DNA from: an uncultured Pseudomonadota bacterium
GTDB lineage: Bacteria > Pseudomonadota > Alphaproteobacteria > Rs-D84
Length of the DNA: 64,000 nt
Assembly: GCA_947307295.1 (NCBI GenBank)
Contig: CAMZIQ010000002.1
Location: 80,621-144,620 of the forward strand
Direction of reading: 5' to 3'
Shown: piece after piece, positions 5,283 through 21,053 of the stretch
Layout: each line of letters opens with the position of its first letter
How positions within the stretch are numbered: the first letter of the stretch is position 1
Translations under genes and position numbers: made by a program
The notes under the pieces: model-generated
The model's database searches: none
The model's input: the letters and a program-made list of their open reading frames with translations, nothing else
What the model was told of the DNA's origin: nothing

Positions 5283-5359
5283 TGGTGGGTGGTATTGGGC
5301 TCGAACCAACGACCTCCACGATGTCAACGTGACGCTCTAGCCAACTGAGCTAACCACCC
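5283..5359 (-). tRNA. tRNA-Val (anticodon GAC), CCA encoded
   Basis: Reverse complement folds as a cloverleaf: GGGTGGT acceptor, D-arm TAGCTCAGTTGGCTAGAGC, anticodon stem TCACG/CGTGG with loop TTGACAT, T-arm GGTCGTTGGTTCGAGCC, then ACCACCC-A-CCA. The 5' half is supplied by the left att repeat of the integrated element. Confidence 0.9.
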
Positions 5360-5364
5360 AAAGC
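5317..5364. repeat. att core copy 1 (attL; equals the 5' half of tRNA-Val(GAC) plus 5 bp)
   Basis: Exact 48-bp direct repeat. Forms part of the intact tRNA. Confidence 0.85.
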
Positions 5365-5370
5365 CACTGA

Positions 5371-5398
5371 ATTATAACATCTAAATTCTAGAATGCAA
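5371..5398 (-). promoter_or_regulatory. element-borne sigma70-like promoter for tRNA-Val (TTGCAT-16-TATAAT on the minus strand)
   Basis: Minus strand reads ttgcat-N16-tataat, ending 11 nt before tRNA +1. A homologous native promoter (TTGCAA-16-TATAAT) sits beside the orphan att copy at 23535..23562. Confidence 0.45.
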
Positions 5399-5511
5399 AT
5401 AAAATCGCTTTTTTTTGCTTTGGTGGCTTTTAGATATAATTTGCTATAGCATCCCCTTTTCACCTACAGTATACTCTAGAGCATGCTCCAAATATGCTCC
5501 TAAATGGTGTT

Positions 5512-5721
5512 TTAGTAGTGTTTATTGGCAAATTTATCTATTCTAATTCGTTTTCCCCATGAATTTACAACAATAACATCTTCACCACTATGAAAAACAT
5601 CACGAGGTTTGTGGAATTCGAGTCTTCGACCACCAATTTGTTTGACTATTACATCATCGTCTTTCCAACGGTATCTCAAATTGCTTTTTGTTTGCATGTT
5701 TAAACCTCTTACTATGATCAT
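5512..5721 (-). CDS. hypothetical small protein (69 aa) at the element left end
   Basis: ORF conserved in both element copies. No motif recognised. Confidence 0.35.
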   Translation of the reverse strand: MIIVRGLNMQTKSNLRYRWKDDDVIVKQIGGRRLEFHKPRDVFHSGEDVIVVNSWGKRIRIDKFANKHY

Positions 5722-5823
5722 TAGAACTAAATTTGGTGCAGATTTTTACCATAAAAGGAATAAAAACACACATTTTAGAGTATAAATATTGTGTAAACAC
5801 TGTTTTCGTGTTATAATTGCTAC

Positions 5824-6975
5824 ATGTTTTATGATGTACAACCGATTCAGAATAAAGAAGACTATAAAAGAATGTTGACTCTTGTAGGTCAGCTTTCGAA
5901 TCTTTTTTCTGAGAGCGATTGTCCTTATTTATCTTACAGGGCTCATGAAAATATATTTTGTAGATTTTTGGGAGCAGAGAATTTAGCCAGATCTGATTGT
6001 TCTGCTGATGCCAAGAAAGATAAAGTTGGTGTTGGTTTGAAAACGTGGATGGGTAACAATGATCAGAAGGTTGCAGAATTTGGGCGTTTGAAGAATAGTT
6101 ATGCTAGTCTTTCTGGAATTGAATTAGTAAAGAAAATAGCTGAATACAGGAATGAACGCATCAGAATTACAAAGAGGTTACATGGATTAGATTCTATGAT
6201 ATACCATGTTGTAAAACGTGTTCCCGGAGCTATGCAAATTCTTGAGGGTGTGTTTGACGAGATAAATATAGAAAACATCACATTATTATCAAACACTGGG
6301 AACGATAACAACACATACTTTACTGATGGAAAACACAAATATCATTTTAGCACATCAAAAAACACTCTGTATATGATATTTGATTTTCTTGAACAGTTGG
6401 ATTCTTTTGAGGTAAAAATATTAGAAAATCCTTATGAATGGTTGTCGAAAGCTACAGATAAAAAAACTATTTCCAAAGACATCAAGAAAGTTGTCAAAGC
6501 TATACAAGAGGAATCAGCAAGAAAACCCCAATTATGTTTGAGATTATATTCGGTAAAGAAGGGTGAAAGGTTTGTTGCTGAGAAGAGTGGTTTAAATCAG
6601 TGGAACGCATCAGGAAGAGCAAGGAATCCTAATGAGTTATATATACCATACCCTAAGGAAGACAGAGACAGAATTCCTAATTTCTTTCCACCAAGAGACA
6701 CACCTTTTACACTACATTTGCCAGATGGTACAGCTATTTCTGCTAAAGTGTGCCAAGCAGACAACAAGGCTATAATGAGTAATCCTAACAGTTTATTGGG
6801 CAAATGGCTTTTGCGAGATGTGTTTGAATTGCCAGATAATACTTTAGTAACATATCAAATGTTAGAAAGGTTTGGTATAGATAGTGTGATTTTCACTAGA
6901 AATGCAGAATTAGATTATTCCGTAGAATTTTCAGAATTGGGCACTTATGAACGTTTTTATGAGATTGAAGACTAA
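5824..6975 (+). CDS. candidate Type II restriction endonuclease (383 aa) directly upstream of the C5-MTase
   Basis: Context only: co-oriented and 45 bp upstream of a Dcm-type MTase on a mobile element. No unambiguous PD-(D/E)xK motif. TATAAT (5812-5817) ends 6 nt before the ATG, suggesting a leaderless transcript. Confidence 0.45.
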   Translation: MFYDVQPIQNKEDYKRMLTLVGQLSNLFSESDCPYLSYRAHENIFCRFLGAENLARSDCSADAKKDKVGVGLKTWMGNNDQKVAEFGRLKNSYASLSGIELVKKIAEYRNERIRITKRLHGLDSMIYHVVKRVPGAMQILEGVFDEINIENITLLSNTGNDNNTYFTDGKHKYHFSTSKNTLYMIFDFLEQLDSFEVKILENPYEWLSKATDKKTISKDIKKVVKAIQEESARKPQLCLRLYSVKKGERFVAEKSGLNQWNASGRARNPNELYIPYPKEDRDRIPNFFPPRDTPFTLHLPDGTAISAKVCQADNKAIMSNPNSLLGKWLLRDVFELPDNTLVTYQMLERFGIDSVIFTRNAELDYSVEFSELGTYERFYEIED

Positions 6976-7017
6976 AAGAGTTTTTGGTTTTTTTATTTTA
7001 TTTTTTTTTGTTTTATT

Positions 7018-7035
7018 TTATTGCGGCGTGCCGCA
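7018..7035. promoter_or_regulatory. perfect palindrome ATTGCGGCGTGCCGCAAT between the R and M genes (attenuator or operator candidate)
   Basis: 8-bp arms ttgcggcg/cgccgcaa, preceded by a long T-rich tract and followed by tttat. A TAAAAT -10-like box and RBS aggag for the MTase lie downstream. Confidence 0.35.
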
Positions 7036-8067
7036 ATTTATGATAGAGTAAAATATGGTTACAGACACAGGAGTTTAAATATGTATACAATAGCATCGTT
7101 TTTTGCCGGTGTTGGTGGCATAGACTTAGGTTTTGAACAAACTAATAAATGCAAAACAATCTATGCTAATGAGTTTGATAGTTATGCAAGTGAGACGTTT
7201 GAAAAAAATTTTCCCGATGTCAAAGTTGATCAACGAGATATACATGATGTGCCTGAAAAAGATATACCAAATGTTGATATTTTTATAGGCGGTTTTCCAT
7301 GTCAGGCATTTTCTATAGCCGGCTACAGACGTGGCTTTGAGGACGAGAAAGGTAGAGGAAATTTGTTTTTTGAGCTTGTTCGTATGATGAAGGCAAAAAA
7401 ACCTCGTGTTGCGTTGTTTGAAAATGTAAAAAATTTAGTTAGCCACGACAAAGGGAATACGTTTCGTGTGATTTGTAATGAGTTGGAAAAATTGGGTTAT
7501 TATTATACATATCATGTTTTGAATGCCATGGATTATGGGAATATGGCTCAAAACAGGGAACGTATATATATAGTAGCATTCAAAAATAAGAAAGATTTTA
7601 TAAAATTCAAATGGGCGAAGACGGTACCTCTAACAACAACAGTAAAAGATATTATAGATTTTACTAAGAAGGTAGACGATAGATTTTATTATACAAAGGG
7701 AAAATACAAGGGTGATATATATGAAAGGCTTGTTGAAGCTACAAAAGGTGACGATCCTAAAAATCCGGCAATATACCAATGGCGTAGAAAATATGTTAGA
7801 AAAAACAAAAGTGGAGTGGTGCCAACTCTAACAGCTAATCAAGGTGAAGGTGGTCATAATGTTTGTATTGTAAAAACAAAATATGGTTTGAGAAAAATGA
7901 CCCCTCAAGAATGCTTTAATACCCAAGGCTTTCCAAAAACGTTTTTGTTACCAAAGCAAAGCGATGCACGTTTATATAAGCAGGCTGGCAATTCTGTTTG
8001 TGTACCGGTTATACACAATATAGCAGAAAACATAGTAACAGCTTTGTCTGACGGCGAAGATAGCTAG
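7021..8067 (+). CDS. DNA (cytosine-5)-methyltransferase, Dcm/HhaI-like; true start probably ATG at 7081 (MYTIASFF) after RBS aggag
   Basis: Motif I FAGVGG, motif IV GGFPCQAFS, motif VI ENVKNL, motif VIII QNRERIYIVAF, motif X GNSV. Short TRD (~328 aa total) as in M.HhaI and M.HaeIII. Confidence 0.9.
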   Translation: MRRAAIYDRVKYGYRHRSLNMYTIASFFAGVGGIDLGFEQTNKCKTIYANEFDSYASETFEKNFPDVKVDQRDIHDVPEKDIPNVDIFIGGFPCQAFSIAGYRRGFEDEKGRGNLFFELVRMMKAKKPRVALFENVKNLVSHDKGNTFRVICNELEKLGYYYTYHVLNAMDYGNMAQNRERIYIVAFKNKKDFIKFKWAKTVPLTTTVKDIIDFTKKVDDRFYYTKGKYKGDIYERLVEATKGDDPKNPAIYQWRRKYVRKNKSGVVPTLTANQGEGGHNVCIVKTKYGLRKMTPQECFNTQGFPKTFLLPKQSDARLYKQAGNSVCVPVIHNIAENIVTALSDGEDS

Positions 8068-8224
8068 AGCTCTTAGTGCGTAGCTGAGATTGTGTAATTA
8101 TTGCAGGCACAACAAAAACTTGAAAAATGTAAGTAACGTGGTATATTTAATGTGAGTACTCGTAAGTGTGCTTGTGACATTAGATAGCGGAACGGGTTTG
8201 ATCACCCAAGTACTAGTCTAGATA

Positions 8225-8346
8225 GTGTCCCAACCGAATGGTTGGGATGCCTTGTGCTATACAATAGGTCTTACCGACTAAAAGCCTTGGGGTTCTGTAC
8301 TTGAATTGATCAACATCCCAACCGCCTAATAAAGCGGTTGTTTTTT
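8225..8346 (+). repeat. divergent copy (C) of a CCAACC-N-GGTTGG leader-like repeat ending in hairpin aaccgc-ctaataaa-gcggtt plus T-run, immediately 5' of the Nuc-like gene
   Basis: Same architecture as repeats A (23624..23816) and B (40478..40660): an internal palindrome cccaaccgaatggttggg, about 85 nt, then ccaaccgcc-loop-gcgg plus Ts. Confidence 0.5.
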
Positions 8347-8871
8347 ATGTTGAAAGCTACTGGATGTTTTTTGTTTTTGATTCTTATATTTGAATTGGTT
8401 GCATGTAATCAAAATGCTATACAACCAATTCAAGAAAACCATAATGATATAAAGATATTTTTTACTCCCGGCACAGAATGTGAAAATAATATTATTGAAA
8501 GAATAAACCAATCAAAAAAAGTGGACATAGCTGTTTATTCAATTACAAACCCTGCTATTACAAAGGCTATTATTTCTGCATATAAACATGGGGTAAATGT
8601 AAGAATTGTGACAGATAAAACACAAGCATCAGGAAAAAAATCATTAGTCTCTCAAATACGTGCTGCCGGAATACCTGTTTTGACTAATAAAAAACACAAG
8701 ATAGAACATAATAAGTTTGCTGTTTTTGACGATGTACATGTTGTTTCTGGATCTTATAACTGGACAACAAACGCAACCAACTATAACAGTGAAAATTGCC
8801 TATTCTTTGATCAACCAGACATGGAATATTCTAAAAGATTTGAGTATCTATGGAAGGTTTATAGTGAATAG
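8338..8871 (+). CDS. Nuc-like phospholipase-D-family (HKD) endonuclease with lipoprotein signal peptide; start likely ATG at 8347
   Basis: HNKFAVFDD HxK(x4)D motif followed by SGSYNWT (PLD/Nuc family). N-terminus MLKATGCFLFLILIFELVAC has the lipobox LVAC. Size ~175 aa, as for pKM101 Nuc. Confidence 0.8.
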   Translation: MFFMLKATGCFLFLILIFELVACNQNAIQPIQENHNDIKIFFTPGTECENNIIERINQSKKVDIAVYSITNPAITKAIISAYKHGVNVRIVTDKTQASGKKSLVSQIRAAGIPVLTNKKHKIEHNKFAVFDDVHVVSGSYNWTTNATNYNSENCLFFDQPDMEYSKRFEYLWKVYSE

Positions 8872-8872
8872 C

Positions 8873-10558
8873 CTAGTAGTATATTTTAAATCCATCGTCT
8901 GTACCCAACTCTTCTATCACATTTTGTATTCTTTTTATTGTTATTTGATCTACTGTTTGAAATCCTGCTTTGCCTTCTATGGATTTTGGATCAACTTTTT
9001 CTGGTATCTGAGAGACGATAAAGTTGAAATTTGTACCTTCTTGTTTGTTTTTTAGCAAGCAGGCATGACTAACTACAGATGCTCCACCATACATCTCAAA
9101 TATCACCCCGGATCGTTGCCCAATAAGATCCAAAAGCATAGTTATAAGTTTTACCGGTTTTTTTGATCCACTAAATGATATATGACCTTCATTTTGTAGT
9201 GTTGATTTAGTGTCTGAAACATCCCATATATCACCTAAAATAACAGAATTTTTCAAGGATCCATCTTCTTGTTTTATAAGGCTATCGCTAAAACGCAAAT
9301 ATAAGGCGTTTTTAGAGCCTTTTTCTAGTAACTTGCCCTTGTACTCGAATATAGGGTCTAAATCGTCTCTATGGGCATAAAAAACGCTTTTATAAGCATT
9401 TGATTTGGGGTAAACAGCTTTGTATAGGTCTTTTGCTATAGTATTGTACATATAATGTTTGAATTCTGGCTCTATTTTGATCATTTTTTCTATGTTTTTA
9501 GATAATAGTTCCATGTTGTGCTTTTTGAATAAGTTTATTATATGAGGTTGCTGTTTCAGGTGGTCAATCAAATATATTTTTTCGTGCACTCCAAAAGTCG
9601 AATTTGGTTTTTTGATAAGATGCTTAAAGGAGTTTTGCCAGTAAGTACTAGATGGAGTGTATAAACGTTGCAGGTGATTTACTTTTGATTTGTCTTTTGC
9701 ATATACTAATAAATAGGATTTTAGTCCGGGTAATCTGTATTGAGTCCTAGATACAATAATAGATGCAGGGGTGCTTGTTTTTATGACGATGTTGTTTATA
9801 AAGTTTTCTCTACCGTATACAGAATCCATAAGCACTTTTACATACGCCATTTCGTGCTCACTTACAGATAGAGCAACAAGTCCGTCTGGTTGAAGAAGTT
9901 TTTTTACTAATTCAAGGCGAGGAAAAAGGTGCTCTAAAAGCTGGCACGTTCCGTCAAATGAAGAATTATATGCTAATACAGCTCTGTTTGATGGCATGTT
10001 AAAGGGTATGTCCCCGTATGCAAGTAACAGTTTTCCTGAGTATTCTGGTAAGAGCCATTTACAAGCATCTATATTATCTTTCACTAGAACAAGATTTTTA
10101 GATTTTTCATTATTTGGTAAGGAGTTGAAAGATTTGTTTGGGTGAAATTTGACTTTTGTTGGAGTGTTTGTTAGTTTTTCTGCCCTTTCTCTTCCATTAA
10201 AGTATAGAAATAGTCCGTTTTTGTTTTGTGTTTGTGTGGTGTTGTTTTTAAAGTCTTCTAGCGATCCAATTATTCCTTCGTATCTATACAGTTGCCCCCA
10301 TTTTTTACCATTTTCAACTTTGCTTATAATTCCGGTGTTGCAGAGAAGTTTGAGTGTGTTGGTGATGGTTGGTCTTGGGATTTTTGTTTGTTTGCATAAA
10401 GTTGTGATGTCGAGTTGAGGGGTTTTGCAAAAAGTATCAAATATGGCTAATGCTGTGTTTTTTGATCTACCAATGTTTTCTATTTTTGCTCGATCTGTAG
10501 ATATAATTTCTGTATTGAATGTATTTATTGTTTTTCTGATGGTTTGTTTTTTTATCAT
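8873..10558 (-). CDS. winged-HTH fused to a divergent N6/N4 amino-methyltransferase-like domain (PF01555-like fold with degenerate catalytic and SAM motifs)
   Basis: N-terminal wHTH-like segment AIFDTFCKTPQLDITTLCKQTKIPRPTITNTLKLLCNTGIISK. Motif IV position reads LLLAYGDIPFNMP (DIPF rather than DPPY). Typical post-motif segments: LQPDGLVALSVSEH..., NNIVIKT, YLLVYAKDKSK. C-terminal motif I position reads GVIFEMYGGASVV rather than VLDPFxGSGTT. Confidence 0.65.
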   Translation of the reverse strand: MIKKQTIRKTINTFNTEIISTDRAKIENIGRSKNTALAIFDTFCKTPQLDITTLCKQTKIPRPTITNTLKLLCNTGIISKVENGKKWGQLYRYEGIIGSLEDFKNNTTQTQNKNGLFLYFNGRERAEKLTNTPTKVKFHPNKSFNSLPNNEKSKNLVLVKDNIDACKWLLPEYSGKLLLAYGDIPFNMPSNRAVLAYNSSFDGTCQLLEHLFPRLELVKKLLQPDGLVALSVSEHEMAYVKVLMDSVYGRENFINNIVIKTSTPASIIVSRTQYRLPGLKSYLLVYAKDKSKVNHLQRLYTPSSTYWQNSFKHLIKKPNSTFGVHEKIYLIDHLKQQPHIINLFKKHNMELLSKNIEKMIKIEPEFKHYMYNTIAKDLYKAVYPKSNAYKSVFYAHRDDLDPIFEYKGKLLEKGSKNALYLRFSDSLIKQEDGSLKNSVILGDIWDVSDTKSTLQNEGHISFSGSKKPVKLITMLLDLIGQRSGVIFEMYGGASVVSHACLLKNKQEGTNFNFIVSQIPEKVDPKSIEGKAGFQTVDQITIKRIQNVIEELGTDDGFKIYY

Positions 10559-10577
10559 GGTACGCTCTCTCTTGAAT

Positions 10578-10604
10578 CATTATTTTTTATAGCAGAAAAT
10601 AATG
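10578..10604. promoter_or_regulatory. 9-bp-stem inverted repeat cattatttt-N9-aaaataatg 20 bp upstream of the MTase-like gene
   Basis: Perfect inverted repeat seen directly. Lies in the divergent intergenic region between the MTase-like gene (-) and the AlpA-like gene (+). Confidence 0.3.
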
Positions 10605-10692
10605 AATAATGCCAATCTAAAAAAAATAACAAAGTATACATTTTTATCATAATTTTGAGTTCTAATATACATACAAAAAAGGATCTATACTA

Positions 10693-10875
10693 ATGCTAAC
10701 AAAACCAGAATTCACACAAGAAAAACTATTGACGGTTACAGAGGCAGCTAATATTTTGAATTTAAAACCTTCTACCTTATACCGTATCAAACAAAATGAA
10801 AGGTCTCCCAAAAAGGTCAAAGTTTGTGGCAGGCTTTATTTTACTCTTTCTTCTATAAACAACATAATGGGCTAA
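10693..10875 (+). CDS. AlpA-like HTH DNA-binding protein (prophage regulatory / excisionase family)
   Basis: LLTVTEAANILNLKPSTLYR helix-turn-helix and the GRLYF / SINNI C-terminal pattern of the AlpA family. RBS aagga 8 nt upstream. Convergently overlaps the 3' end of the Rep gene by ~100 bp. Confidence 0.65.
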   Translation: MLTKPEFTQEKLLTVTEAANILNLKPSTLYRIKQNERSPKKVKVCGRLYFTLSSINNIMG

Positions 10876-11709
10876 TCTCTTTTCTAATATCTTTCTCAAT
10901 TTGTTTATGGGGTTTGGTAAGAGTAATTCGCCACGTTGTTTGAGCCATAAAGCAAAGATAATGACGGTTTTCAGTTGCTTTATATCAAAATAATTCACTT
11001 TATGTGGGTTGAATCTCTCTTTGCCAAACCAAGTCTTCATTGTAAACAGCTCACTACCTTCGTTGATATGTGGATCTTCGTTGTCTTTTAATTCTTTGAC
11101 AAGGTAAGCACAAATTCCCTCTTTATCATAAACACATCTCAAATCAAAAACGGTCTTATAAAACTTATATTTATCAACGATTTTACTAATTGCATCACAT
11201 AATCTGTAGCCAATATATTCGTCATGATCTGTACTTTTGAAGAGAATATGAACATGCCACCAAAAATCATTCTTACCATGTTCCATTACACCAACACATT
11301 GTAAAGCGTTTCTAGTCCAATGATTTTTTTGTTCTATGGCAAGAGTTTGAATTTCTTTGAATAATTTTTTATAAGATTTTTTAGCGTCTTCTCTGTTTCT
11401 TGTTCTTCTAAAACCGGATTGGGTGCATCTGGGTAGTTTGATTGTCAAAAGATAAGAATAGTCTTCTTGCATTAGTTGTTTTTGCCAATATTTCCTAGAG
11501 TCTTGATATTCAGTTTGGTGATTCCTATAAAAACCATTCAATTCTTCATTTATCTCATTTGTAAATTTAGACATGATTTCCTCTAGCGTTCTAAACCTTC
11601 TTCTTATTTTCAATCCACGTTCTTCCACATAAAACGTTCTTCTTTTTATTGTTTTACTTAGTTGGGAATGTTGAACATCTAAATTAGAAAATAAATCATA
11701 ACCATTCAT
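10777..11709 (-). CDS. HUH-superfamily rolling-circle Rep / MobT-like relaxase candidate (310 aa)
   Basis: WWHVHILF (HUH motif) followed by Tyr-containing segments (DEYIGYRL, ICAYLVKELK), as in Rep_trans/MobT proteins. Divergent from the regulator gene across a promoter/operator region. Confidence 0.55.
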   Translation of the reverse strand: MNGYDLFSNLDVQHSQLSKTIKRRTFYVEERGLKIRRRFRTLEEIMSKFTNEINEELNGFYRNHQTEYQDSRKYWQKQLMQEDYSYLLTIKLPRCTQSGFRRTRNREDAKKSYKKLFKEIQTLAIEQKNHWTRNALQCVGVMEHGKNDFWWHVHILFKSTDHDEYIGYRLCDAISKIVDKYKFYKTVFDLRCVYDKEGICAYLVKELKDNEDPHINEGSELFTMKTWFGKERFNPHKVNYFDIKQLKTVIIFALWLKQRGELLLPNPINKLRKILEKRLAHYVVYRRKSKIKPATNFDLFGRPFILFDTV

Positions 11710-11971
11710 TTATTACCTTCTTGGTTTACTTTGTTTAATGAATGATCAACACACCTTTTGTTTTGGGTGCTAATCAGTTTGAATCAAAAAGCCCGGATTT
11801 ATAAGGGTTGAAGCGTAATCCAATCCAACAGGAGCGATTTGATTTATTTCCTAGAACTGTTTTTTTTCATAAAGTTGTAAAATTTTTCATTCTTTGTGAT
11901 TTTTTTGAGGAACGATTCGTAAAAAAAGACAAATTCGATACAAAAATAGGTGTTTTTTCTGGCAGGAGGCA

Positions 11972-12029
11972 AGTGTATACACTTTGTGTATAAAAAATAC
12001 TTGACATCGGTACACAAAAAGTGTATACT
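11972..12029 (+). promoter_or_regulatory. switch region: consensus sigma70 promoter (TTGACA 12001-12006, 17 bp spacer, TATACT 12024-12029) with GTGTAYAC operator repeats, including the 12-bp palindrome AGTGTATACACT at 11972-11983
   Basis: Sequence read directly. Operator-like motifs at 11972-83, 11986-93, 12008-15 (inverted) and 12019-29 overlap the -35 and -10 boxes. RBS aaagaggtg then ATG of the HTH regulator. Confidence 0.6.
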
Positions 12030-12058
12030 GTAGCTGTAACAAAAACAAAAGAGGTGTT

Positions 12059-12601
12059 TTGATGGAAAAATATAGAACAAAGTTTGGTACATGGATCTCT
12101 GTATTTTGTGCCAGACATGGATTAAACATCGCAAGGGCTGCTTATGAATTGGGGTTGGCTCCTACTACATTGGCATCTATTGTAGCTGGAAGACATCCTT
12201 TACCGGTGTTCTTGCGTGAAAATATCATAGCGACTTTCGGAAGATATTTGTCCGGAACAGATATTGCCGAAATGGATCAAAGCATTGTTGATACAGAGGC
12301 AGGAGCTGTGATTGTGTCAAGGAACTATAAAAAATACGTCAGTGCACAAACAGTGAATGACAAAGAATGGTGTCTAAAACTGATGGATGTAATGGCTAAA
12401 GCGACCAATAAAATGAACAAGGAGGAATCTGAAGAAATTTATGCTCGTTTGCAAGAGATTGCTGAACGCCCTGCACCAGTATCTATAGAATTAGACAAAG
12501 ATATAGATATTGAAACGCTGAGACAAGATATTCGCAGACGGTATAAAGACCCTGTAAAAACAGAACAAATTGTAGAAAAAATAAAAGAACTGAGACAATA
12601 A
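12059..12601 (+). CDS. XRE/Cro-like HTH transcriptional regulator (element repressor candidate), acidic coiled-coil C-terminus
   Basis: N-terminal HTH WISVFCARHGLNIARAAYELGLAPTTLASIVAGRH. Immediately downstream of the operator-rich promoter. Confidence 0.6.
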   Translation: MMEKYRTKFGTWISVFCARHGLNIARAAYELGLAPTTLASIVAGRHPLPVFLRENIIATFGRYLSGTDIAEMDQSIVDTEAGAVIVSRNYKKYVSAQTVNDKEWCLKLMDVMAKATNKMNKEESEEIYARLQEIAERPAPVSIELDKDIDIETLRQDIRRRYKDPVKTEQIVEKIKELRQ

Positions 12602-12715
12602 AAAATAAAGTGGGTGAACAAGCTGCAACCTGCTCACCCTAACAAACACCAAACGAGTTGGATGTCTGCCACAAAGTCATTTTAGCTCGTTTGGATCAAA
12701 AATCAAGAACCAAAG

Positions 12716-14029
12716 GTGACTAAAATGAGCAAACAAGAAAATATTACACAAACATTAGTAAATAAAATCGTATACAACATCGAAAAAGGCAACACGTCTG
12801 AATTATGTGATGTGTGGGATTCTAAGACATCAGGTTTTGGTATACGAGTTGGCAAAACCAATGCATCTTTTATTTTCAAATATAGAAATAAGGCAAACAA
12901 AGCCCAAACAAAAACATTTGGTAAAATAACCGAAATGTCTGTTGCTGAGGCTAGAAATCTATTGGACGCATTTAAACCAACAATAAAATCTGATCTTGCA
13001 ACAATTCAGAAAACTAATAAGAAATATACGGTGAAAGATTTATGTGAAAAATATCTTGCGGAACACCAAACTCGTGCAACAACGAAAAAACAAGACGAAA
13101 GCAGGATTGAAAGACACGTCTTGCCAACACTTGGCAACATACCATTACATTTATTGACAGCTAAAGATATTATGAATGCACAAACGGCTATTGCAAACGG
13201 TGATAAAAAAATAATTATAGCAGGACATAAAAACCCAAATAATCCACATTCATATATCAAAGTATCTGGCGGTCAAGGTGCTGCTAAAAGGGTTATGGAA
13301 ATGCTGAAAACAATTTTGAATTTTGCAGAAGACGAAGAGTTGATTGAAAAAAATCCTATGAATTCTCGTAAATTCAAAAAAATCAAATACGATAAAAAAG
13401 AAACAGCGTATCTCGAAAACAACAATTATGAAAATCTTGGTTATTTGTTGAAAAAGCATGAACAGCAATCAAAGAAAAGCAATCAAAGTGTGTTGTTTAT
13501 AAAATTATTGGCTTTGACGGGCTGTCGTAAAGGTGAATTATTAGGTCTTACTTGGAATCGAGTAGATTTTACCAACCAATATTTTGTGTTTGCTAAAACA
13601 AAAACTACAGGGGAACAAAAACGATATTTTGGATCTGCAGCAAAAAGATTATTGTTAGATATGCACCAAAAAGCTACATCCAACTACTTGTTCCCTAGTA
13701 TTACAAAAACAGGTACACATAGAAAAGATTGTTTGAGAGCTTTAAAGCAGATTTGTAAAACAGCACAAGAAAACAAAAGTCAATTTGATGCAATACAAAA
13801 ACTAACCCTACATGGTCTTAGACATTCATTTTCAACAATGTGTAACACCCTCTCTTTTCCCGATGTAATTAGAGAAGGACTTATGGGGCACAAGAATGGT
13901 GGTGTACAATATATTTATACACACAATACACATAACACAATGATTGAACATGCAGATAAAGTATCAGAAAGTATCAACACGTTGTTAGATACGGGATGTA
14001 AAAAAGCAGAATTGGAAAACAACAACTAA
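12716..14029 (+). CDS. int: tyrosine recombinase / phage integrase (P4-like, DUF4102 N-terminus); start possibly ATG 12725
   Basis: Box I LTGCRKGELLGLTWNRVD (Arg), box II HGLRHSF (H-x-x-R), and catalytic Tyr in HKNGGVQYIYTH. Adjacent to the tRNA att site. Confidence 0.92.
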   Translation: MTKMSKQENITQTLVNKIVYNIEKGNTSELCDVWDSKTSGFGIRVGKTNASFIFKYRNKANKAQTKTFGKITEMSVAEARNLLDAFKPTIKSDLATIQKTNKKYTVKDLCEKYLAEHQTRATTKKQDESRIERHVLPTLGNIPLHLLTAKDIMNAQTAIANGDKKIIIAGHKNPNNPHSYIKVSGGQGAAKRVMEMLKTILNFAEDEELIEKNPMNSRKFKKIKYDKKETAYLENNNYENLGYLLKKHEQQSKKSNQSVLFIKLLALTGCRKGELLGLTWNRVDFTNQYFVFAKTKTTGEQKRYFGSAAKRLLLDMHQKATSNYLFPSITKTGTHRKDCLRALKQICKTAQENKSQFDAIQKLTLHGLRHSFSTMCNTLSFPDVIREGLMGHKNGGVQYIYTHNTHNTMIEHADKVSESINTLLDTGCKKAELENNN

Positions 14030-14041
14030 AGAGGTAAAAAA

Positions 14042-14263
14042 ATGAAATTTATAACAGAAAGAGAATTAGCTAAATTTTTATCGAATGAATATGGTTTGCC
14101 AACATCGAAAAAATCATTAGAAAAATTACGTGCAAAAGGTAAAGCACCAAATTTTAGAGTTTGGGGTGGAAAAATTGTATATGAAAAGCAAGATGTACAG
14201 ACATGGCTCAACAATCAAATGGCGATTTGTTACAAGTACACAATGCCAAAATATAGCATATAA
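14042..14263 (+). CDS. excisionase-like HTH protein (HTH_17/AlpA-Xis family)
   Basis: ITERELAKFL ... NFRVWGGKIVYEKQDVQTWL pattern. Immediately follows the integrase, with RBS gaggtaaaaaaATG. Confidence 0.55.
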   Translation: MKFITERELAKFLSNEYGLPTSKKSLEKLRAKGKAPNFRVWGGKIVYEKQDVQTWLNNQMAICYKYTMPKYSI

Positions 14264-14273
14264 AAAAAGCAAA

Positions 14274-14291
14274 ATGCTCCCAATATGCTCC
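14274..14291 (+). promoter_or_regulatory. pair of ATGCTCC direct repeats 11 bp apart at the element right end (putative integrase/Xis arm-type sites); equivalent pair at the left end, 5483-5500
   Basis: atgctcc at 14274-80 and 14285-91. atgctcc at 5483-89 and 5494-5500. Same orientation and spacing (one helical turn) at both arms. Confidence 0.35.
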
Positions 14292-14340
14292 AAAATGATA
14301 AAAACCACAAAACTAACACAAACACTAGAGAATCAAAAAA

Positions 14341-14367
14341 CCCCGGAAATCCGGGGTAAATCTTTTT
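14341..14367 (+). terminator. Rho-independent terminator after xis (ccccgg-aaat-ccgggg then T-run)
   Basis: Hairpin and tctttttgtt read directly. Last feature before att. Confidence 0.5.
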
Positions 14368-14398
14368 GTTGGGGGGCTAAAATCTTCATAACGAATTT

Positions 14399-14446
14399 CA
14401 CGATGTCAACGTGACGCTCTAGCCAACTGAGCTAACCACCCAAAGC
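14399..14446. repeat. att core copy 2 (junction between the two element units; partial tRNA-Val 5' half)
   Basis: Exact 48-bp direct repeat. Preceded by the element right end and followed by the element left end. Confidence 0.85.
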
Positions 14447-14593
14447 CACTGAATTATAACATCTAAATTCTAGAATGCAAATAAAATCGCTTTTTTTTGC
14501 TTTGGTGGCTTTTAGATATAATTTGCTATAGCATCCCCTTTTCACCTACAGTATACTCTAGAGCATGCTCCAAATATGCTCCTAAATGGTGTT

Positions 14594-14803
14594 TTAGTAG
14601 TGTTTATTGGCAAATTTATCTATTCTAATTCGTTTTCCCCATGAATTTACAACAATAACATCTTCACCACTATGAAAAACATCACGAGGTTTGTGGAATT
14701 CGAGTCTTCGACCACCAATTTGTTTGACTATTACATCATCGTCTTTCCAACGGTATCTCAAATTGCTTTTTGTTTGCATGTTTAAACCTCTTACTATGAT
14801 CAT
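14594..14803 (-). CDS. hypothetical small protein (copy 2 of 5512..5721)
   Basis: Identical translation at offset +9082. Confidence 0.35.
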   Translation of the reverse strand: MIIVRGLNMQTKSNLRYRWKDDDVIVKQIGGRRLEFHKPRDVFHSGEDVIVVNSWGKRIRIDKFANKHY

Positions 14804-14905
14804 TAGAACTAAATTTGGTGCAGATTTTTACCATAAAAGGAATAAAAACACACATTTTAGAGTATAAATATTGTGTAAACACTGTTTTCGTGTTATAATT
14901 GCTAC

Positions 14906-16057
14906 ATGTTTTATGATGTACAACCGATTCAGAATAAAGAAGACTATAAAAGAATGTTGACTCTTGTAGGTCAGCTTTCGAATCTTTTTTCTGAGAGCGA
15001 TTGTCCTTATTTATCTTACAGGGCTCATGAAAATATATTTTGTAGATTTTTGGGAGCAGAGAATTTAGCCAGATCTGATTGTTCTGCTGATGCCAAGAAA
15101 GATAAAGTTGGTGTTGGTTTGAAAACGTGGATGGGTAACAATGATCAGAAGGTTGCAGAATTTGGGCGTTTGAAGAATAGTTATGCTAGTCTTTCTGGAA
15201 TTGAATTAGTAAAGAAAATAGCTGAATACAGGAATGAACGCATCAGAATTACAAAGAGGTTACATGGATTAGATTCTATGATATACCATGTTGTAAAACG
15301 TGTTCCCGGAGCTATGCAAATTCTTGAGGGTGTGTTTGACGAGATAAATATAGAAAACATCACATTATTATCAAACACTGGGAACGATAACAACACATAC
15401 TTTACTGATGGAAAACACAAATATCATTTTAGCACATCAAAAAACACTCTGTATATGATATTTGATTTTCTTGAACAGTTGGATTCTTTTGAGGTAAAAA
15501 TATTAGAAAATCCTTATGAATGGTTGTCGAAAGCTACAGATAAAAAAACTATTTCCAAAGACATCAAGAAAGTTGTCAAAGCTATACAAGAGGAATCAGC
15601 AAGAAAACCCCAATTATGTTTGAGATTATATTCGGTAAAGAAGGGTGAAAGGTTTGTTGCTGAGAAGAGTGGTTTAAATCAGTGGAACGCATCAGGAAGA
15701 GCAAGGAATCCTAATGAGTTATATATACCATACCCTAAGGAAGACAGAGACAGAATTCCTAATTTCTTTCCACCAAGAGACACACCTTTTACACTACATT
15801 TGCCAGATGGTACAGCTATTTCTGCTAAAGTGTGCCAAGCAGACAACAAGGCTATAATGAGTAATCCTAACAGTTTATTGGGCAAATGGCTTTTGCGAGA
15901 TGTGTTTGAATTGCCAGATAATACTTTAGTAACATATCAAATGTTAGAAAGGTTTGGTATAGATAGTGTGATTTTCACTAGAAATGCAGAATTAGATTAT
16001 TCCGTAGAATTTTCAGAATTGGGCACTTATGAACGTTTTTATGAGATTGAAGACTAA
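14906..16057 (+). CDS. candidate Type II restriction endonuclease (copy 2)
   Basis: Identical translation at offset +9082. Confidence 0.45.
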   Translation: MFYDVQPIQNKEDYKRMLTLVGQLSNLFSESDCPYLSYRAHENIFCRFLGAENLARSDCSADAKKDKVGVGLKTWMGNNDQKVAEFGRLKNSYASLSGIELVKKIAEYRNERIRITKRLHGLDSMIYHVVKRVPGAMQILEGVFDEINIENITLLSNTGNDNNTYFTDGKHKYHFSTSKNTLYMIFDFLEQLDSFEVKILENPYEWLSKATDKKTISKDIKKVVKAIQEESARKPQLCLRLYSVKKGERFVAEKSGLNQWNASGRARNPNELYIPYPKEDRDRIPNFFPPRDTPFTLHLPDGTAISAKVCQADNKAIMSNPNSLLGKWLLRDVFELPDNTLVTYQMLERFGIDSVIFTRNAELDYSVEFSELGTYERFYEIED

Positions 16058-16102
16058 AAGAGTTTTTGGTTTTTTTATTTTATTTTTTTTTGTTTTATTT
16101 TA

Positions 16103-17149
16103 TTGCGGCGTGCCGCAATTTATGATAGAGTAAAATATGGTTACAGACACAGGAGTTTAAATATGTATACAATAGCATCGTTTTTTGCCGGTGTTGGTGG
16201 CATAGACTTAGGTTTTGAACAAACTAATAAATGCAAAACAATCTATGCTAATGAGTTTGATAGTTATGCAAGTGAGACGTTTGAAAAAAATTTTCCCGAT
16301 GTCAAAGTTGATCAACGAGATATACATGATGTGCCTGAAAAAGATATACCAAATGTTGATATTTTTATAGGCGGTTTTCCATGTCAGGCATTTTCTATAG
16401 CCGGCTACAGACGTGGCTTTGAGGACGAGAAAGGTAGAGGAAATTTGTTTTTTGAGCTTGTTCGTATGATGAAGGCAAAAAAACCTCGTGTTGCGTTGTT
16501 TGAAAATGTAAAAAATTTAGTTAGCCACGACAAAGGGAATACGTTTCGTGTGATTTGTAATGAGTTGGAAAAATTGGGTTATTATTATACATATCATGTT
16601 TTGAATGCCATGGATTATGGGAATATGGCTCAAAACAGGGAACGTATATATATAGTAGCATTCAAAAATAAGAAAGATTTTATAAAATTCAAATGGGCGA
16701 AGACGGTACCTCTAACAACAACAGTAAAAGATATTATAGATTTTACTAAGAAGGTAGACGATAGATTTTATTATACAAAGGGAAAATACAAGGGTGATAT
16801 ATATGAAAGGCTTGTTGAAGCTACAAAAGGTGACGATCCTAAAAATCCGGCAATATACCAATGGCGTAGAAAATATGTTAGAAAAAACAAAAGTGGAGTG
16901 GTGCCAACTCTAACAGCTAATCAAGGTGAAGGTGGTCATAATGTTTGTATTGTAAAAACAAAATATGGTTTGAGAAAAATGACCCCTCAAGAATGCTTTA
17001 ATACCCAAGGCTTTCCAAAAACGTTTTTGTTACCAAAGCAAAGCGATGCACGTTTATATAAGCAGGCTGGCAATTCTGTTTGTGTACCGGTTATACACAA
17101 TATAGCAGAAAACATAGTAACAGCTTTGTCTGACGGCGAAGATAGCTAG
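16103..17149 (+). CDS. DNA (cytosine-5)-methyltransferase (copy 2; start probably 16163)
   Basis: Identical translation at offset +9082, with the same m5C motifs. Confidence 0.9.
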   Translation: MRRAAIYDRVKYGYRHRSLNMYTIASFFAGVGGIDLGFEQTNKCKTIYANEFDSYASETFEKNFPDVKVDQRDIHDVPEKDIPNVDIFIGGFPCQAFSIAGYRRGFEDEKGRGNLFFELVRMMKAKKPRVALFENVKNLVSHDKGNTFRVICNELEKLGYYYTYHVLNAMDYGNMAQNRERIYIVAFKNKKDFIKFKWAKTVPLTTTVKDIIDFTKKVDDRFYYTKGKYKGDIYERLVEATKGDDPKNPAIYQWRRKYVRKNKSGVVPTLTANQGEGGHNVCIVKTKYGLRKMTPQECFNTQGFPKTFLLPKQSDARLYKQAGNSVCVPVIHNIAENIVTALSDGEDS

Positions 17150-17306
17150 AGCTCTTAGTGCGTAGCTGAGATTGTGTAATTATTGCAGGCACAACAAAAA
17201 CTTGAAAAATGTAAGTAACGTGGTATATTTAATGTGAGTACTCGTAAGTGTGCTTGTGACATTAGATAGCGGAACGGGTTTGATCACCCAAGTACTAGTC
17301 TAGATA

Positions 17307-17428
17307 GTGTCCCAACCGAATGGTTGGGATGCCTTGTGCTATACAATAGGTCTTACCGACTAAAAGCCTTGGGGTTCTGTACTTGAATTGATCAACATCC
17401 CAACCGCCTAATAAAGCGGTTGTTTTTT
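17307..17428 (+). repeat. leader-like repeat C (copy 2) ending in a terminator hairpin at the Nuc-like start
   Basis: Identical to 8225..8346 at +9082. Confidence 0.5.
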
Positions 17429-17953: not shown

Positions 17954-17954
17954 C

Positions 17955-19640: not shown

Positions 19641-19774
19641 GGTACGCTCTCTCTTGAATCATTATTTTTTATAGCAGAAAATAATGAATAATGCCAATCT
19701 AAAAAAAATAACAAAGTATACATTTTTATCATAATTTTGAGTTCTAATATACATACAAAAAAGGATCTATACTA

Positions 19775-19957
19775 ATGCTAACAAAACCAGAATTCACACA
19801 AGAAAAACTATTGACGGTTACAGAGGCAGCTAATATTTTGAATTTAAAACCTTCTACCTTATACCGTATCAAACAAAATGAAAGGTCTCCCAAAAAGGTC
19901 AAAGTTTGTGGCAGGCTTTATTTTACTCTTTCTTCTATAAACAACATAATGGGCTAA
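19775..19957 (+). CDS. AlpA-like HTH protein (copy 2)
   Basis: Identical translation at offset +9082. Confidence 0.65.
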   Translation: MLTKPEFTQEKLLTVTEAANILNLKPSTLYRIKQNERSPKKVKVCGRLYFTLSSINNIMG

Positions 19958-20791
19958 TCTCTTTTCTAATATCTTTCTCAATTTGTTTATGGGGTTTGGT
20001 AAGAGTAATTCGCCACGTTGTTTGAGCCATAAAGCAAAGATAATGACGGTTTTCAGTTGCTTTATATCAAAATAATTCACTTTATGTGGGTTGAATCTCT
20101 CTTTGCCAAACCAAGTCTTCATTGTAAACAGCTCACTACCTTCGTTGATATGTGGATCTTCGTTGTCTTTTAATTCTTTGACAAGGTAAGCACAAATTCC
20201 CTCTTTATCATAAACACATCTCAAATCAAAAACGGTCTTATAAAACTTATATTTATCAACGATTTTACTAATTGCATCACATAATCTGTAGCCAATATAT
20301 TCGTCATGATCTGTACTTTTGAAGAGAATATGAACATGCCACCAAAAATCATTCTTACCATGTTCCATTACACCAACACATTGTAAAGCGTTTCTAGTCC
20401 AATGATTTTTTTGTTCTATGGCAAGAGTTTGAATTTCTTTGAATAATTTTTTATAAGATTTTTTAGCGTCTTCTCTGTTTCTTGTTCTTCTAAAACCGGA
20501 TTGGGTGCATCTGGGTAGTTTGATTGTCAAAAGATAAGAATAGTCTTCTTGCATTAGTTGTTTTTGCCAATATTTCCTAGAGTCTTGATATTCAGTTTGG
20601 TGATTCCTATAAAAACCATTCAATTCTTCATTTATCTCATTTGTAAATTTAGACATGATTTCCTCTAGCGTTCTAAACCTTCTTCTTATTTTCAATCCAC
20701 GTTCTTCCACATAAAACGTTCTTCTTTTTATTGTTTTACTTAGTTGGGAATGTTGAACATCTAAATTAGAAAATAAATCATAACCATTCAT
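19859..20791 (-). CDS. HUH Rep/MobT-like protein (copy 2)
   Basis: Identical translation at offset +9082. Confidence 0.55.
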   Translation of the reverse strand: MNGYDLFSNLDVQHSQLSKTIKRRTFYVEERGLKIRRRFRTLEEIMSKFTNEINEELNGFYRNHQTEYQDSRKYWQKQLMQEDYSYLLTIKLPRCTQSGFRRTRNREDAKKSYKKLFKEIQTLAIEQKNHWTRNALQCVGVMEHGKNDFWWHVHILFKSTDHDEYIGYRLCDAISKIVDKYKFYKTVFDLRCVYDKEGICAYLVKELKDNEDPHINEGSELFTMKTWFGKERFNPHKVNYFDIKQLKTVIIFALWLKQRGELLLPNPINKLRKILEKRLAHYVVYRRKSKIKPATNFDLFGRPFILFDTV

Positions 20792-21053
20792 TTATTACCT
20801 TCTTGGTTTACTTTGTTTAATGAATGATCAACACACCTTTTGTTTTGGGTGCTAATCAGTTTGAATCAAAAAGCCCGGATTTATAAGGGTTGAAGCGTAA
20901 TCCAATCCAACAGGAGCGATTTGATTTATTTCCTAGAACTGTTTTTTTTCATAAAGTTGTAAAATTTTTCATTCTTTGTGATTTTTTTGAGGAACGATTC
21001 GTAAAAAAAGACAAATTCGATACAAAAATAGGTGTTTTTTCTGGCAGGAGGCA

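Follow-up and report, generated by a model that had tools for sequence, protein, structure and literature searches.

A divergent single-tyrosine HUH initiator-like protein with a convergent HTH partner gene in a tandem integrative island of an uncultured gut alphaproteobacterium

The 310-aa protein encoded at positions 10777..11709 (-) of the analysed stretch of 64,000 nucleotides (the window) is, judged by its sequence, a very divergent and rare HUH rolling-circle initiator-like protein, in the following called Rep. The gene lies on an integrative island of 9,082 bp, which is inserted as two identical tandem copies in a tRNA-Val gene of an uncultured gut alphaproteobacterium, and an identical second rep copy is found in tandem unit 2 at 19859..20791 (-). 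With moderate confidence, Rep is regarded as the divergent single-tyrosine HUH rolling-circle initiator of this island, which would replicate the island in its excised state.

According to this reading, the tyrosine integrase of the island, probably with the adjoining 73-aa HTH protein, would excise and integrate the element at a 48-bp core in tRNA-Val(GAC). On the circularised island, Rep would introduce a single-strand nick at an origin, which most probably lies within a conserved block of about 220 bp just upstream of rep, and the nick would prime rolling-circle replication, by which the excised element could be kept or amplified. The resulting ssDNA or multimers would then be available for reintegration or for passing on. 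A 60-aa HTH_17 protein encoded convergently to Rep would serve as a dedicated DNA-binding partner of the replication module, either controlling the promoters of Rep and the methyltransferase or acting as an accessory factor at the origin, and would not be the excisionase of the integrase.

Motifs, fold and family placement of Rep

The Rep open reading frame contains GKNDFWWHVHILFKSTD, including the string WWHVHILF with H152-V-H154, and the tyrosine stretch VY194DKEGICAY202LVK205E following HVH. The earlier note had pointed out WWHVHILF and the downstream tyrosine motifs in a 310-aa frame, and both are present, as features of an HUH-type initiator-like protein. Motif 1 corresponds to LLTIKLP (residues 87-93), in which I90, K91 and P93 are invariant, while motif 2 (H152-V-H154), motif 3 (Y202-L-V-K205) and E143 showed no variation among the 11 close sequences. 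Even among 44 distant relatives, HxH and YxxK are conserved to at least 90%. A comparison of five diverged homologs showed a normal coding periodicity with pairwise differences per site of 0.27, 0.20 and 0.45 for codon positions 1, 2 and 3, and by this pattern the gene is under purifying selection, as a functional gene would be.

Together with the HUH motif, motif 1 and the catalytic Tyr motif, the alpha/beta nuclease fold places Rep in the HUH superfamily (Rep class). The top PDB matches of the fold in Foldseek were the origin-binding domains of MVM NS1 and AAV2 Rep, and the modelled fold appears nearest to the nuclease domains of AAV/parvovirus Rep proteins. In BFVD, matches were obtained down to an E-value of 1e-6, and the named ones among them were microvirus and phage replication initiators.

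Concerning sequence families, the profile PF23343 (REP_ORF2-G2P) was matched by 6 of the 11 close and 33 of the 44 distant relatives (39/55 in all, at a relaxed E-value). The scores of 27.9 (P0009), 25.9 (P0008) and 19.6 bits (P0016) lie around the gathering cutoff of 27.8 bits, compared to 76 bits for the prototype SpV4 ORF2, and the window Rep itself gave no match to PF23343 at E<=1. By these scores, the relatives of Rep would stand at the edge of PF23343, the microvirus SpV4 ORF2-type initiators. The 'ORF2' of SpV1 was also considered as the prototype and was rejected, because that frame encodes a Zot-like ATPase. A kinship with the gene II protein (gpII) of Ff/IKe was dropped as well, as hhalign against IKe gpII gave a probability of 0.3% and hmmsearch with the close and distant alignments returned nothing.

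The window Rep matched no sequence model of Pfam, NCBIfam, PHROG or PDB, PADLOC likewise reported nothing, and an exact look-up found no record of the sequence. The whole family comprises 50 clusters among 1.84 billion proteins, and tblastn with Rep gave no hits among 50,697 phage genomes or among 72,556 plasmids.

The earlier note had placed the protein in the Rep_trans (PF02486)/MobT clade of initiators and relaxases. The only point in favour of this placement is a general resemblance, namely that a protein of rolling-circle type is encoded by an integrative element. In the profile search, PF02486 matched neither the window Rep nor 10 close relatives (both E<=1) nor the 44 distant ones (E<=0.01), and the fold was not found to be similar to solved Rep_trans/MobT structures. 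Since profile and fold comparison both speak against it, membership in this clade was rejected and is given hardly any probability. For annotation, the case illustrates that HUH is not equal to Rep_trans.

The convergent HTH gene and the 3'-3' overlap

The partner gene of rep at 10693..10875 (+), with its second copy at 19775-19957, encodes a 60-aa HTH_17 protein (excisionase/MerR-like winged helix). The protein passes the Pfam model HTH_17 (PF12728) with 28.5 bits at a cutoff of 27 and matches PHROG 66 'excisionase and transcriptional regulator' with 7.7e-6, while it remains below the cutoffs of Phage_AlpA (PF05930; 14.8 vs 21 bits) and TIGR01764 (21 vs 28.8). The gene is separated from int by 1.8 kb containing rep and the gene of a 180-aa protein, so the integrase linkage characteristic of AlpA was not found. 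Hence, the description as 'AlpA-family' in the earlier note is too narrow: the protein is an HTH_17 with an excisionase/AlpA-like winged HTH, but the Phage_AlpA score and the position relative to int do not agree with that family. A paralogous relationship of the 60-aa protein to the HTH_17-like 73-aa protein was rejected due to the absence of sequence similarity.

In all 20 elements examined, which carry Tyr or Ser recombinases, rep is linked with the convergent HTH gene and usually with an N6/N4 methyltransferase gene. The HTH gene is always linked to rep, including in the elements with serine recombinases, and its conservation in homologous elements, a point on which the earlier note had made its proposal depend, is therefore observed in 20 of 20 cases. 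Moreover, the gene was called independently by NCBI in a related MAG and by other gene callers in related contigs, and outside the overlap with rep it showed codon-position differences of 0.12, 0.11 and 0.42. From these patterns, both frames are taken to be more than chance ORFs.

The overlap of the last 33 Rep codons with the opposite-strand HTH frame was correctly described before; it comprises 99 nt at 10777..10875, where Rep residues 279-310 and HTH residues 29-60 are in exact codon-to-codon antisense register. Among the 20 elements examined, 19 have such an overlap, always in the same register, and the overlap length across relatives is 108, 99, 90, 42, 21 or 0 nt. In locus L020, the two genes do not overlap and are separated by a hairpin.

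A regulatory function of the overlap itself would imply that convergent transcription or antisense pairing over 10777-10875 makes the expression of Rep and HTH mutually exclusive or couples it. This would fit with the convergence kept in 20 of 20 elements, the constant register in the 19 overlapping ones and the finding that the HTH Leu/Ser codons in the long-overlap loci are never TTA, CTA or TCA despite synonymous variation, although these sequences are non-independent. Since no intrinsic terminator was predicted in 10400-12200, the transcripts of Rep and HTH must also run into each other. The substitutions within the overlap point in another direction. For Rep codon positions 1, 2 and 3 they amount to 0.34, 0.11 and 0.18, which is an inverted periodicity mirroring the HTH frame, while the third-position divergence of HTH is hardly reduced in the overlap (0.35 vs 0.42 outside). 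Because the substitutions track the codon periodicity of HTH and not that of Rep, the Rep tail appears to be without independent constraint, and it is predicted to be disordered with a pLDDT of about 30. A dual coding constraint on the tail was rejected due to the inverted periodicity, the only hint to the contrary being the avoidance of antisense stops in the non-independent sequences. Considering also the variable overlap length and the separated genes of L020, a regulatory role of the overlap is judged to be rather improbable.

Altogether, the overlap looks like a by-product rather than a proven regulatory device. In this clade, the Rep frame would read on through the antisense strand of HTH up to the first TTA, CTA or TCA codon, so that the C-terminus would be prolonged by a disordered stretch that varies in length. 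As a second lesson for annotation, a seemingly conserved C-terminal tail can just mirror a constrained gene on the opposite strand.

Island architecture, candidate origin and spread

The 48-bp att core, which corresponds to the 5' half of tRNA-Val(GAC) (5283-5359 (-)), occurs in three identical copies at 5317..5364 (attL), 14399-14446 (attP-like junction) and 23481-23528 (attR). They delimit the two identical 9,082-bp units, in agreement with the tandem dimer assumed in the earlier note. The dimer may have arisen from rolling-circle concatemers, as that note suggested. The tyrosine integrase (Arm-DNA-bind_3, SAM-like and catalytic domains) is encoded at 12716..14029 (+), directly followed by the gene of the 73-aa HTH_17-like protein at 14042..14263 (+). 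With 23.4 bits the latter stays below the HTH_17 cutoff. Its gene next to int is also conserved in related elements, and from this arrangement the 73-aa protein would be a better excisionase candidate than the 60-aa one. Two pairs of ATGCTCCNAA direct repeats, at 14274..14294 (+) and 14565-14585, lie on either side of the att core and may serve as arm sites of the integrase.

Divergent from rep, the gene of the 180-aa protein occupies a conserved position at 12059..12601 (+). The protein shows a weak HTH signal at its N-terminus and is a candidate repressor. Upstream of its gene, a promoter TTGACA-17-TATACT (12001-12029 (+)) is embedded in an inverted repeat with 18-nt arms (11975-11992 and 12011-12028). 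Both are conserved in the loci L012, L014 and L015 and are probably the operator/promoter of the 180-aa/int operon.

The non-coding block 5' of rep (11710..11927 (-)) is conserved in 19 loci, and its conservation exceeds that of the protein; it is the candidate origin or regulatory region. Within this block lie the invariant GTTCT(A) box at 11852-11857, a hairpin with arms at 11752-11755 and 11766-11769, and a GTTGAT box abutting the hairpin (11745-11750). The hairpin, located 32-43 nt before the Rep ATG and with clade-specific arms, scored 38 compared to 23.1 ± 4.4 for shuffled sequences and was reached in 1 of 1000 shuffles. It could equally be a feature of the 5'-UTR. For a hairpin enclosing the GTTCT box, the summed stems gave 62 compared to 52.7 ± 3.8, yet an arbitrary offset gave 67, so this candidate was rejected as no better than the controls. 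The GTTCT box as a gpII-like nick site was dropped too, because IKe gpII belongs to Phage_CRI and the IKe nick loop has no GTTCT. RNAalifold returned no pairs and no consensus structure for the region upstream of rep, the Rfam search found only the tRNA, and a single-strand origin, a helicase gene and an SSB gene were not found.

The backbone further encodes an N6/N4 (Mod-like) DNA methyltransferase (8873..10558 (-)), which carries a winged HTH at its N-terminus and whose gene runs divergently to that of the 60-aa HTH, and a NucT-like nuclease of the PLD family with a lipobox-like N-terminus (8338..8871 (+)). The cargo is a Type II restriction-modification pair at 5824..8067 (+), consisting of an NgoFVII-like restriction endonuclease (5824-6975) and a C5 cytosine methyltransferase (7021-8067). 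In locus L001, the island backbone is 98% identical while the chromosomal flanks share 68-78% and the cargo is different. Sister elements carry other cargo in the restriction-modification slot, and by this comparison the cargo appears swappable. The tRNA-Val site is common to L001, L012-L014 and L024-L028, and the same element is present in other samples. The recombinase, the att repeats at a conserved target and the horizontal mobility characterise the island as an integrative element. A 16-nt terminal overlap of contig L030 was rejected as proof of a circle, because a k=31 unitig ending at the att core gives the same result.

A relaxase role has been shown for MobT in ICEBs1 and Tn916 and proposed for the RCR-initiator-type proteins of streptococcal IMEs. 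Rep could likewise be mainly relaxase-like, in which case the island would be an IME whose oriT is nicked by Rep in the excised form, with Rep piloting the ssDNA through the T4SS of a co-resident conjugative element. The horizontal spread of the island without transfer genes of its own agrees with this, and the orphan-like methyltransferase and the nuclease of the backbone would suit the entry into new hosts. In addition, IMEs with phage-type RCR initiators (PHA00330, Viral_Rep), some of them without a coupling protein, have been described (PMC5704250). However, RCR-type relaxases have been shown experimentally in Firmicutes only, according to the same review (PMC5704250), and Rep is neither of the Rep_trans/MobT type nor has it relatives among the plasmids searched. 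A coupling protein, a T4SS gene or a known oriT was found neither in the element, the gene content of which is restricted to the restriction endonuclease, two methyltransferases, the PLD nuclease, HTH proteins, Rep and integrase, nor in the window, and the relatives likewise have no conjugation module. Mobilisation as the main role of Rep is therefore considered unlikely.

The tandem arrangement allows another explanation, in which Rep nicks in successive copies and frees a unit-length ssDNA circle without excision, as in CTXphi/RS1. The dimer would then be the substrate and not the product of replication, and a helper ssDNA phage might package the circle. The putative origins of the two identical units are exactly 9,082 bp apart across the attP-like junction, the nearest relatives of Rep in sequence and structure are ssDNA-phage initiators, and for CTXphi tandem prophages are required for the RstA-driven release (PMC8265649). 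Against this stands the complete integrase module with arm repeats, due to which ordinary excision is available to the element. The sister elements found at this site are single copies, so the tandem dimer does not occur regularly, and it might also reflect an assembly path running through integrated and circular forms. Virion and packaging genes are absent, as are relatives in the phage genomes searched. Release from a tandem array is thus assigned a low probability. Similarly speculative is a wider proposal, in which Rep, HTH and methyltransferase would form a portable 'replicative release' module for islands with Tyr or Ser recombinases; pre-methylated unit-length ssDNA circles, from the tandem or the excised circle, would be carried along from one species of uncultured gut Alphaproteobacteria to another, and the overlap would switch the element between quiescence and replication.

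If replication of the excised island by Rep is the right reading, a rare unannotated HUH branch joins the rolling-circle proteins of small integrative elements, and the theme, known from Firmicutes and Actinobacteria, would take in uncultured gut Alphaproteobacteria as well. The island would be a compact vehicle that moves interchangeable restriction-modification cargo across species, and a defined protein with a candidate origin of about 220 bp would be at hand for studying 'transfer-gene-less' islands.

Comparison with known systems

With SpV4 ORF2 (PF23343), the Rep family shares the order of motif 1, HUH and motif 3 as well as the context E-x-G...[WP]HxH, while the hhalign alignment covers only the HUH stretch with a probability of 0.8%. 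SpV4 ORF2 has a Y-x3-Y pair. Since Gly replaces the first Tyr of this pair in the Rep family, a single Tyr in YxxK is left. Unlike the microvirus initiators, the rep gene is chromosomal and island-borne. Comparable initiator genes are also found in small integrative elements (PMC5704250). The PHA00330 class of streptococcal IMEs would probably be of the PF23343 type. For the phage-type RCR initiators of IMEs (PHA00330, Viral_Rep), a function in maintenance of the excised element, transfer or both has been proposed (PMC5704250). With the gpII of Ff/IKe (Phage_CRI, PF05144), Rep would share the character of a rolling-circle initiator of an ssDNA replicon. In M13, gpII cleavage occurs at a site that starts with GTTCT (bioRxiv 10.1101/2023.12.22.573028), and the likeness of this start to the box upstream of rep is treated as coincidental.

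MobT/Rep_trans proteins of ICEBs1 and Tn916 embody the same idea of a single rolling-circle protein that could serve transfer as well as replication after excision (PMC5704250), but belong to a different family by sequence and fold, and the island has no coupling protein or T4SS. AlpA (CP4-57) and phage Xis-like HTH_17 proteins resemble the 60-aa HTH in being winged helices of about 60 aa on an integrative element, whereas the latter does not adjoin int, is linked to Rep and the methyltransferase, and is kept with serine recombinases. RstA of CTXphi/RS1 (Vibrio cholerae) is comparable with regard to the HUH-type initiator and the small integrated tandem with origins one unit apart (PMC8265649). 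In contrast to the island with its own integrase and att sites, CTXphi relies on XerCD of the host for integration and depends on the array to be released; the island further differs by the absence of phage morphogenesis genes and by single sister copies.

Among integrative elements, the pSAM2-type AICEs carry int/xis, integrate into tRNA genes and encode an RCR Rep resembling phage Reps (PMC2440964). Their organisation (int-xis-repSA) is similar to that of the island in the size of about 10 kb, the tRNA site, the tyrosine integrase with excisionase and the phage-like rolling-circle Rep (PMC2440964). Compared to this type, FtsK-like Tra and spread genes are missing from the island, which resides in a Gram-negative alphaproteobacterial host and encodes a Rep of another family. 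The partners of this Rep are the convergent HTH and a DNA methyltransferase, and the cargo is a restriction-modification system.

Family placement of the 310-aa HUH protein

The 310-aa open reading frame on the minus strand (10777..11709), referred to as Rep, carries ...GKNDFWWHVHILFKSTD..., and ...VYDKEGICAYLVKE... is found 40 residues further on; the coordinates and the WWHVHILF-type motif reported in an earlier note were confirmed by reading the frame. The alignment of the close set showed an invariant LLTIKLP (motif 1), E143, H152-V-H154 (motif 2) and Y194...Y202-x-x-K205 (motif 3), and since these blocks occur in the expected order, the protein fits an HUH enzyme. For the 44 distant relatives, the columns with a conservation of at least 90% comprise, start Met aside, only the W, the E, HxH and Y..K. 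While the initiator of the microvirus SpV4 contains Y-x3-Y, Rep has a Gly at the first of these positions, 4 residues ahead of Y202, which indicates a single-tyrosine YxxK enzyme. Pairwise differences at codon positions 1, 2 and 3 amounted to 0.27, 0.20 and 0.45 (5 homologs); judged by its codons, the gene is under purifying selection.

Rep itself gave no match in Pfam, NCBIfam, PHROGs, PADLOC or PDB sequences, including Rep_trans. Only ten homologs were found among 5.8 billion clustered proteins, and a profile run against 1.84 billion representatives yielded 50 relatives, 20 of them below 1e-10. PF23343 (REP_ORF2-G2P) was matched by 6 of the 11 close and 33 of the 44 distant relatives, Rep_trans by none of either set (0/11 and 0/44). 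At the level of profile matches, the nearest Pfam model to the family is accordingly PF23343, not Rep_trans. The SpV4 ORF2 replication initiator reached 76 bits on this model and two Rep relatives, P0009 and P0008, 27.9 and 25.9 bits (cutoff 27.8), with the window Rep remaining without match; by these scores the family sits at the edge of the model. Two other proteins were rejected as representatives of PF23343: the IKe gene II protein belongs to a different family (Phage_CRI) and was unrelated to the Rep family by hhalign, and an SpV1 ORF spanning the record origin encodes a Zot-like ATPase.

The AlphaFold model, built on an 11-sequence alignment, showed a mean pLDDT of 66, with 75-90 for the core (residues ~70-210) and about 30 for the final 36 residues. 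In Foldseek searches against the PDB, the origin-binding domains of MVM NS1 and AAV2 Rep ranked first; against viral models, E-values went down to 1e-6, the named matches being a microvirus replication initiator and a 'replication gene A protein'. Rep_trans or MobT structures were absent from every list, and these rankings agree with the sequence-based placement. Altogether, motif order, PF23343 relatives and predicted fold support an HUH rolling-circle-type initiator. The observation of the earlier note is thus real and its interpretation right in part: the HUH assignment stands, and the Rep_trans/MobT clade is abandoned in view of the profile searches and fold matches. Rep represents a rare, previously unannotated HUH branch.

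The convergent HTH gene and its overlap with Rep

The small 60-aa HTH gene on the plus strand (10693..10875) passed the HTH_17 cutoff of 27 with 28.5 bits and stayed under the cutoffs for AlpA (14.8 vs 21) and the TIGR01764 excisionase (21 vs 28.8), so that the AlpA-family label proposed before is too narrow. Outside the overlap its codon positions differ by 0.12, 0.11 and 0.42, a 98%-identical homolog is annotated by NCBI in a yak-rumen MAG, and homologs were also called by other gene callers in the related loci L015, L017, L018 and L020; it is therefore a real gene. Across loci ranging from 99% Rep identity down to distant profile-only relatives, an HTH homolog lies convergent to Rep in every readable case. 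In L017-L020, Rep and HTH, usually with an MTase, adjoin one or two large serine recombinases and no tyrosine integrase. This argues for the 60-aa protein as part of the Rep module and against a role as excisionase of the tyrosine integrase, and it implies that the replication module has been swapped between integrative elements that differ in their type of recombinase.

The 3' ends of both genes overlap by 99 nt, matching the ~33 codons reported before. This length was also determined for L001 and L012-L016, compared to 108 nt in L019, 90 nt in L017 and L018, 42 nt in L002-L007, L010 and L011, and 21 nt in L008 and L009. L020 has no overlap; a 38-nt gap between its convergent genes is filled by a perfect, bidirectional-terminator-like hairpin (AATCCTATGGC...GTCATAGGATT, 4419-4455). 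In all overlapping loci the frames lie in exact codon-to-codon antisense register, and Rep stops where the HTH gene has its first TTA, CTA or TCA codon (Leu29, TTA, in the window). Inside the overlap, the HTH codon positions differ by 0.19, 0.09 and 0.35. As substitutions follow the HTH periodicity, the Rep tail varies more at its own first (0.34) than third positions (0.18), opposite to the Rep body. Due to this reversal and the disorder predicted for the tail in the AlphaFold model, the conservation of ...NFDLFGRPFILFDTV can be regarded as only apparent, and largely mirrors the HTH wing, which is under constraint. In L002 and L010, whose Reps are shorter, tblastn likeness to the window Rep tail runs on beyond the in-frame stop (about 10808-10909), which would follow if the opposite-strand HTH gene keeps the tail sequence in place or if the stop is recent.

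The sole hint of a Rep frame kept open is found in the long-overlap loci, where HTH Leu and Ser codons vary synonymously but never to TTA, CTA or TCA, in few and related sequences. Since no terminators were predicted between or within the two genes, the converging transcripts must meet. A regulatory function of the overlap, which could coexist with other readings, is nevertheless considered rather improbable, and the overlap is most readily explained as an incidental run-on of the Rep C-terminus.

Structure, relatives and cargo of the element

The 9,082-bp unit is present twice in tandem, and both units (5308-23471) differ at 3 bases only; these (5313, 5314, 5316) lie at the chromosomal/element flank of attL. 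Such near-identity points to a very recent duplication, tandem integration, or an assembly path via integrated and circular forms; the dimer as such is compatible with double integration, dimer integration or the same assembly path. SGI1 is a case in which an IME forms tandem arrays upon transfer (PMC5704250). A CTXphi-like replicative release from the tandem array (PMC8265649) is regarded as highly improbable, and all sister loci contain single copies.

Each unit comprises an NgoFVII-like REase, a C5 MTase, a PLD/NucT-like nuclease (8338-8871), a Mod-like N6/N4 MTase (8873-10558, minus), the 60-aa HTH (plus), Rep (minus), a 180-aa protein, the tyrosine integrase and a 73-aa HTH_17-like protein. 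The latter, adjoining int and unrelated in sequence to the 60-aa HTH, is the better excisionase candidate. The PLD nuclease showed NucT-like (E 5.5e-13) and DrmC-like (E 3.6e-10) matches, both under family cutoffs; its N-terminus MFFMLKATGCFLFLILIFELVAC resembles a lipoprotein signal with lipobox, which suggests export. The N6/N4 MTase shows weak MarR_2/TrmB/SoFic_C matches in an N-terminal winged HTH; a 134-bp intergenic region separates it from the divergently oriented 60-aa HTH gene, and it is found with Rep and HTH in nearly every relative.

The 48-bp att core (5317-5364, 14399-14446, 23481-23528) corresponds to the 5' half of tRNA-Val(GAC); the target (5283-5404, 14370-14486, 23452-23568) thereby differs from the 3' end, the more usual one. 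The tRNA is intact at attL only, with a clean attP-like hybrid at the middle junction. As the element-supplied upstream of the attL tRNA (5365-5404) is ~84% similar to the native upstream stranded at attR, the element seems to supply the tRNA with a substitute promoter region. The att core lies between two ATGCTCCNAA direct-repeat pairs with 11-nt spacing (14274-14294, 14565-14585), which are candidates for arm-type binding of the integrase. Ahead of the 180-aa/int operon, an 18-nt-arm inverted repeat rich in GTGTATAC encloses a near-consensus sigma-70 promoter (TTGACA-17-TATACT, 11975-12029). This promoter is kept in L012, L014 and L015 and probably drives the 180-aa/integrase/73-aa operon under operator control.

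Judged by the related loci, the host falls among Alphaproteobacteria MAGs from gut and rumen, with Ca. Enterousia as one of them. Compared to L001 (7228-13598), the backbone (window 8111-14480) is 98% identical, whereas the flanking chromosome shows 68-78% and the cargo differs; on the basis of these identities, this is direct evidence of recent horizontal transfer of the island between species of gut and rumen Alphaproteobacteria. Contigs with 99%-identical Rep are single integrated copies carrying two D12 MTases and a 462-aa protein, and one 9,097-bp contig carries the window cargo at 97% identity. A constant backbone of 73-aa HTH, int, ~180-aa protein, Rep, HTH, MTase and PLD is combined with swappable cargo. 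On 97-99% identical backbones (window 5776-8110 vs L001 13598-17067, L024-L031), the cargo consists of the NgoFVII-like REase and C5 MTase in the window and L030, and of two D12-class MTases with the 462-aa protein in L001, L024-L029 and L031; more distant relatives carry ResIII-helicase systems. This island family resembles a vehicle that shuttles defence systems.

Candidate origin and proposed mode of replication

A non-coding block of ~220 bp upstream of Rep (11710-11927) is conserved in all loci, in the most distant elements more strongly than the Rep protein. It contains an invariant GTTCT(A) box (11852-11857), preceded at 17-18 nt by a -35-like TTtaCA. In the search for a nick site or inverted repeat near Rep, suggested previously, a hairpin seemingly enclosing the GTTCT box was not better than controls, whereas another one (arms 11752-11755 and 11766-11769, 32-43 nt before the ATG), abutting a GTTGAT-like box, exceeded them. 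Its arms are CACC/GGTG, CCGTC/GACGG or CCG/CGG depending on the clade, and over 8 lineages the summed stem was 38 compared to 23.1±4.4 for shuffles (reached by 1 of 1000) and 3-29 for offset controls. RNAalifold gave no consensus RNA structure in the block. According to the AICE review, the pC194-family nick consensus is CTTGAT, and in any one Rep family the rolling-circle nick sites show high conservation, the binding sites variation (PMC2440964); the block can therefore be considered a reasonable candidate double-strand origin. A promoter/operator with 5'-UTR fits equally well.

We lean towards Rep-driven rolling-circle replication of an Int-excised circle. Int would excise the island as a circle, which Rep would nick at an origin within the upstream block; the resulting rolling-circle replication could maintain or amplify the element and yield ssDNA or multimers, with the 60-aa HTH protein acting as a DNA-binding regulator or accessory factor of the Rep module. 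IMEs with phage-type rolling-circle initiators are known, and for these initiators a part in maintenance, in transfer or in both has been proposed (PMC5704250); a relaxase-like mobilisation role of Rep is considered unlikely here. The island is a small integrative element with a rolling-circle initiator, probably replicative or mobilisable. In this respect it resembles AICEs of the pSAM2 type, which combine int/xis and tRNA integration with a rolling-circle Rep resembling phage Reps (PMC2440964). Nothing categorically new is described; a rare HUH branch and a conserved convergent HTH partner are added to a known type of island.
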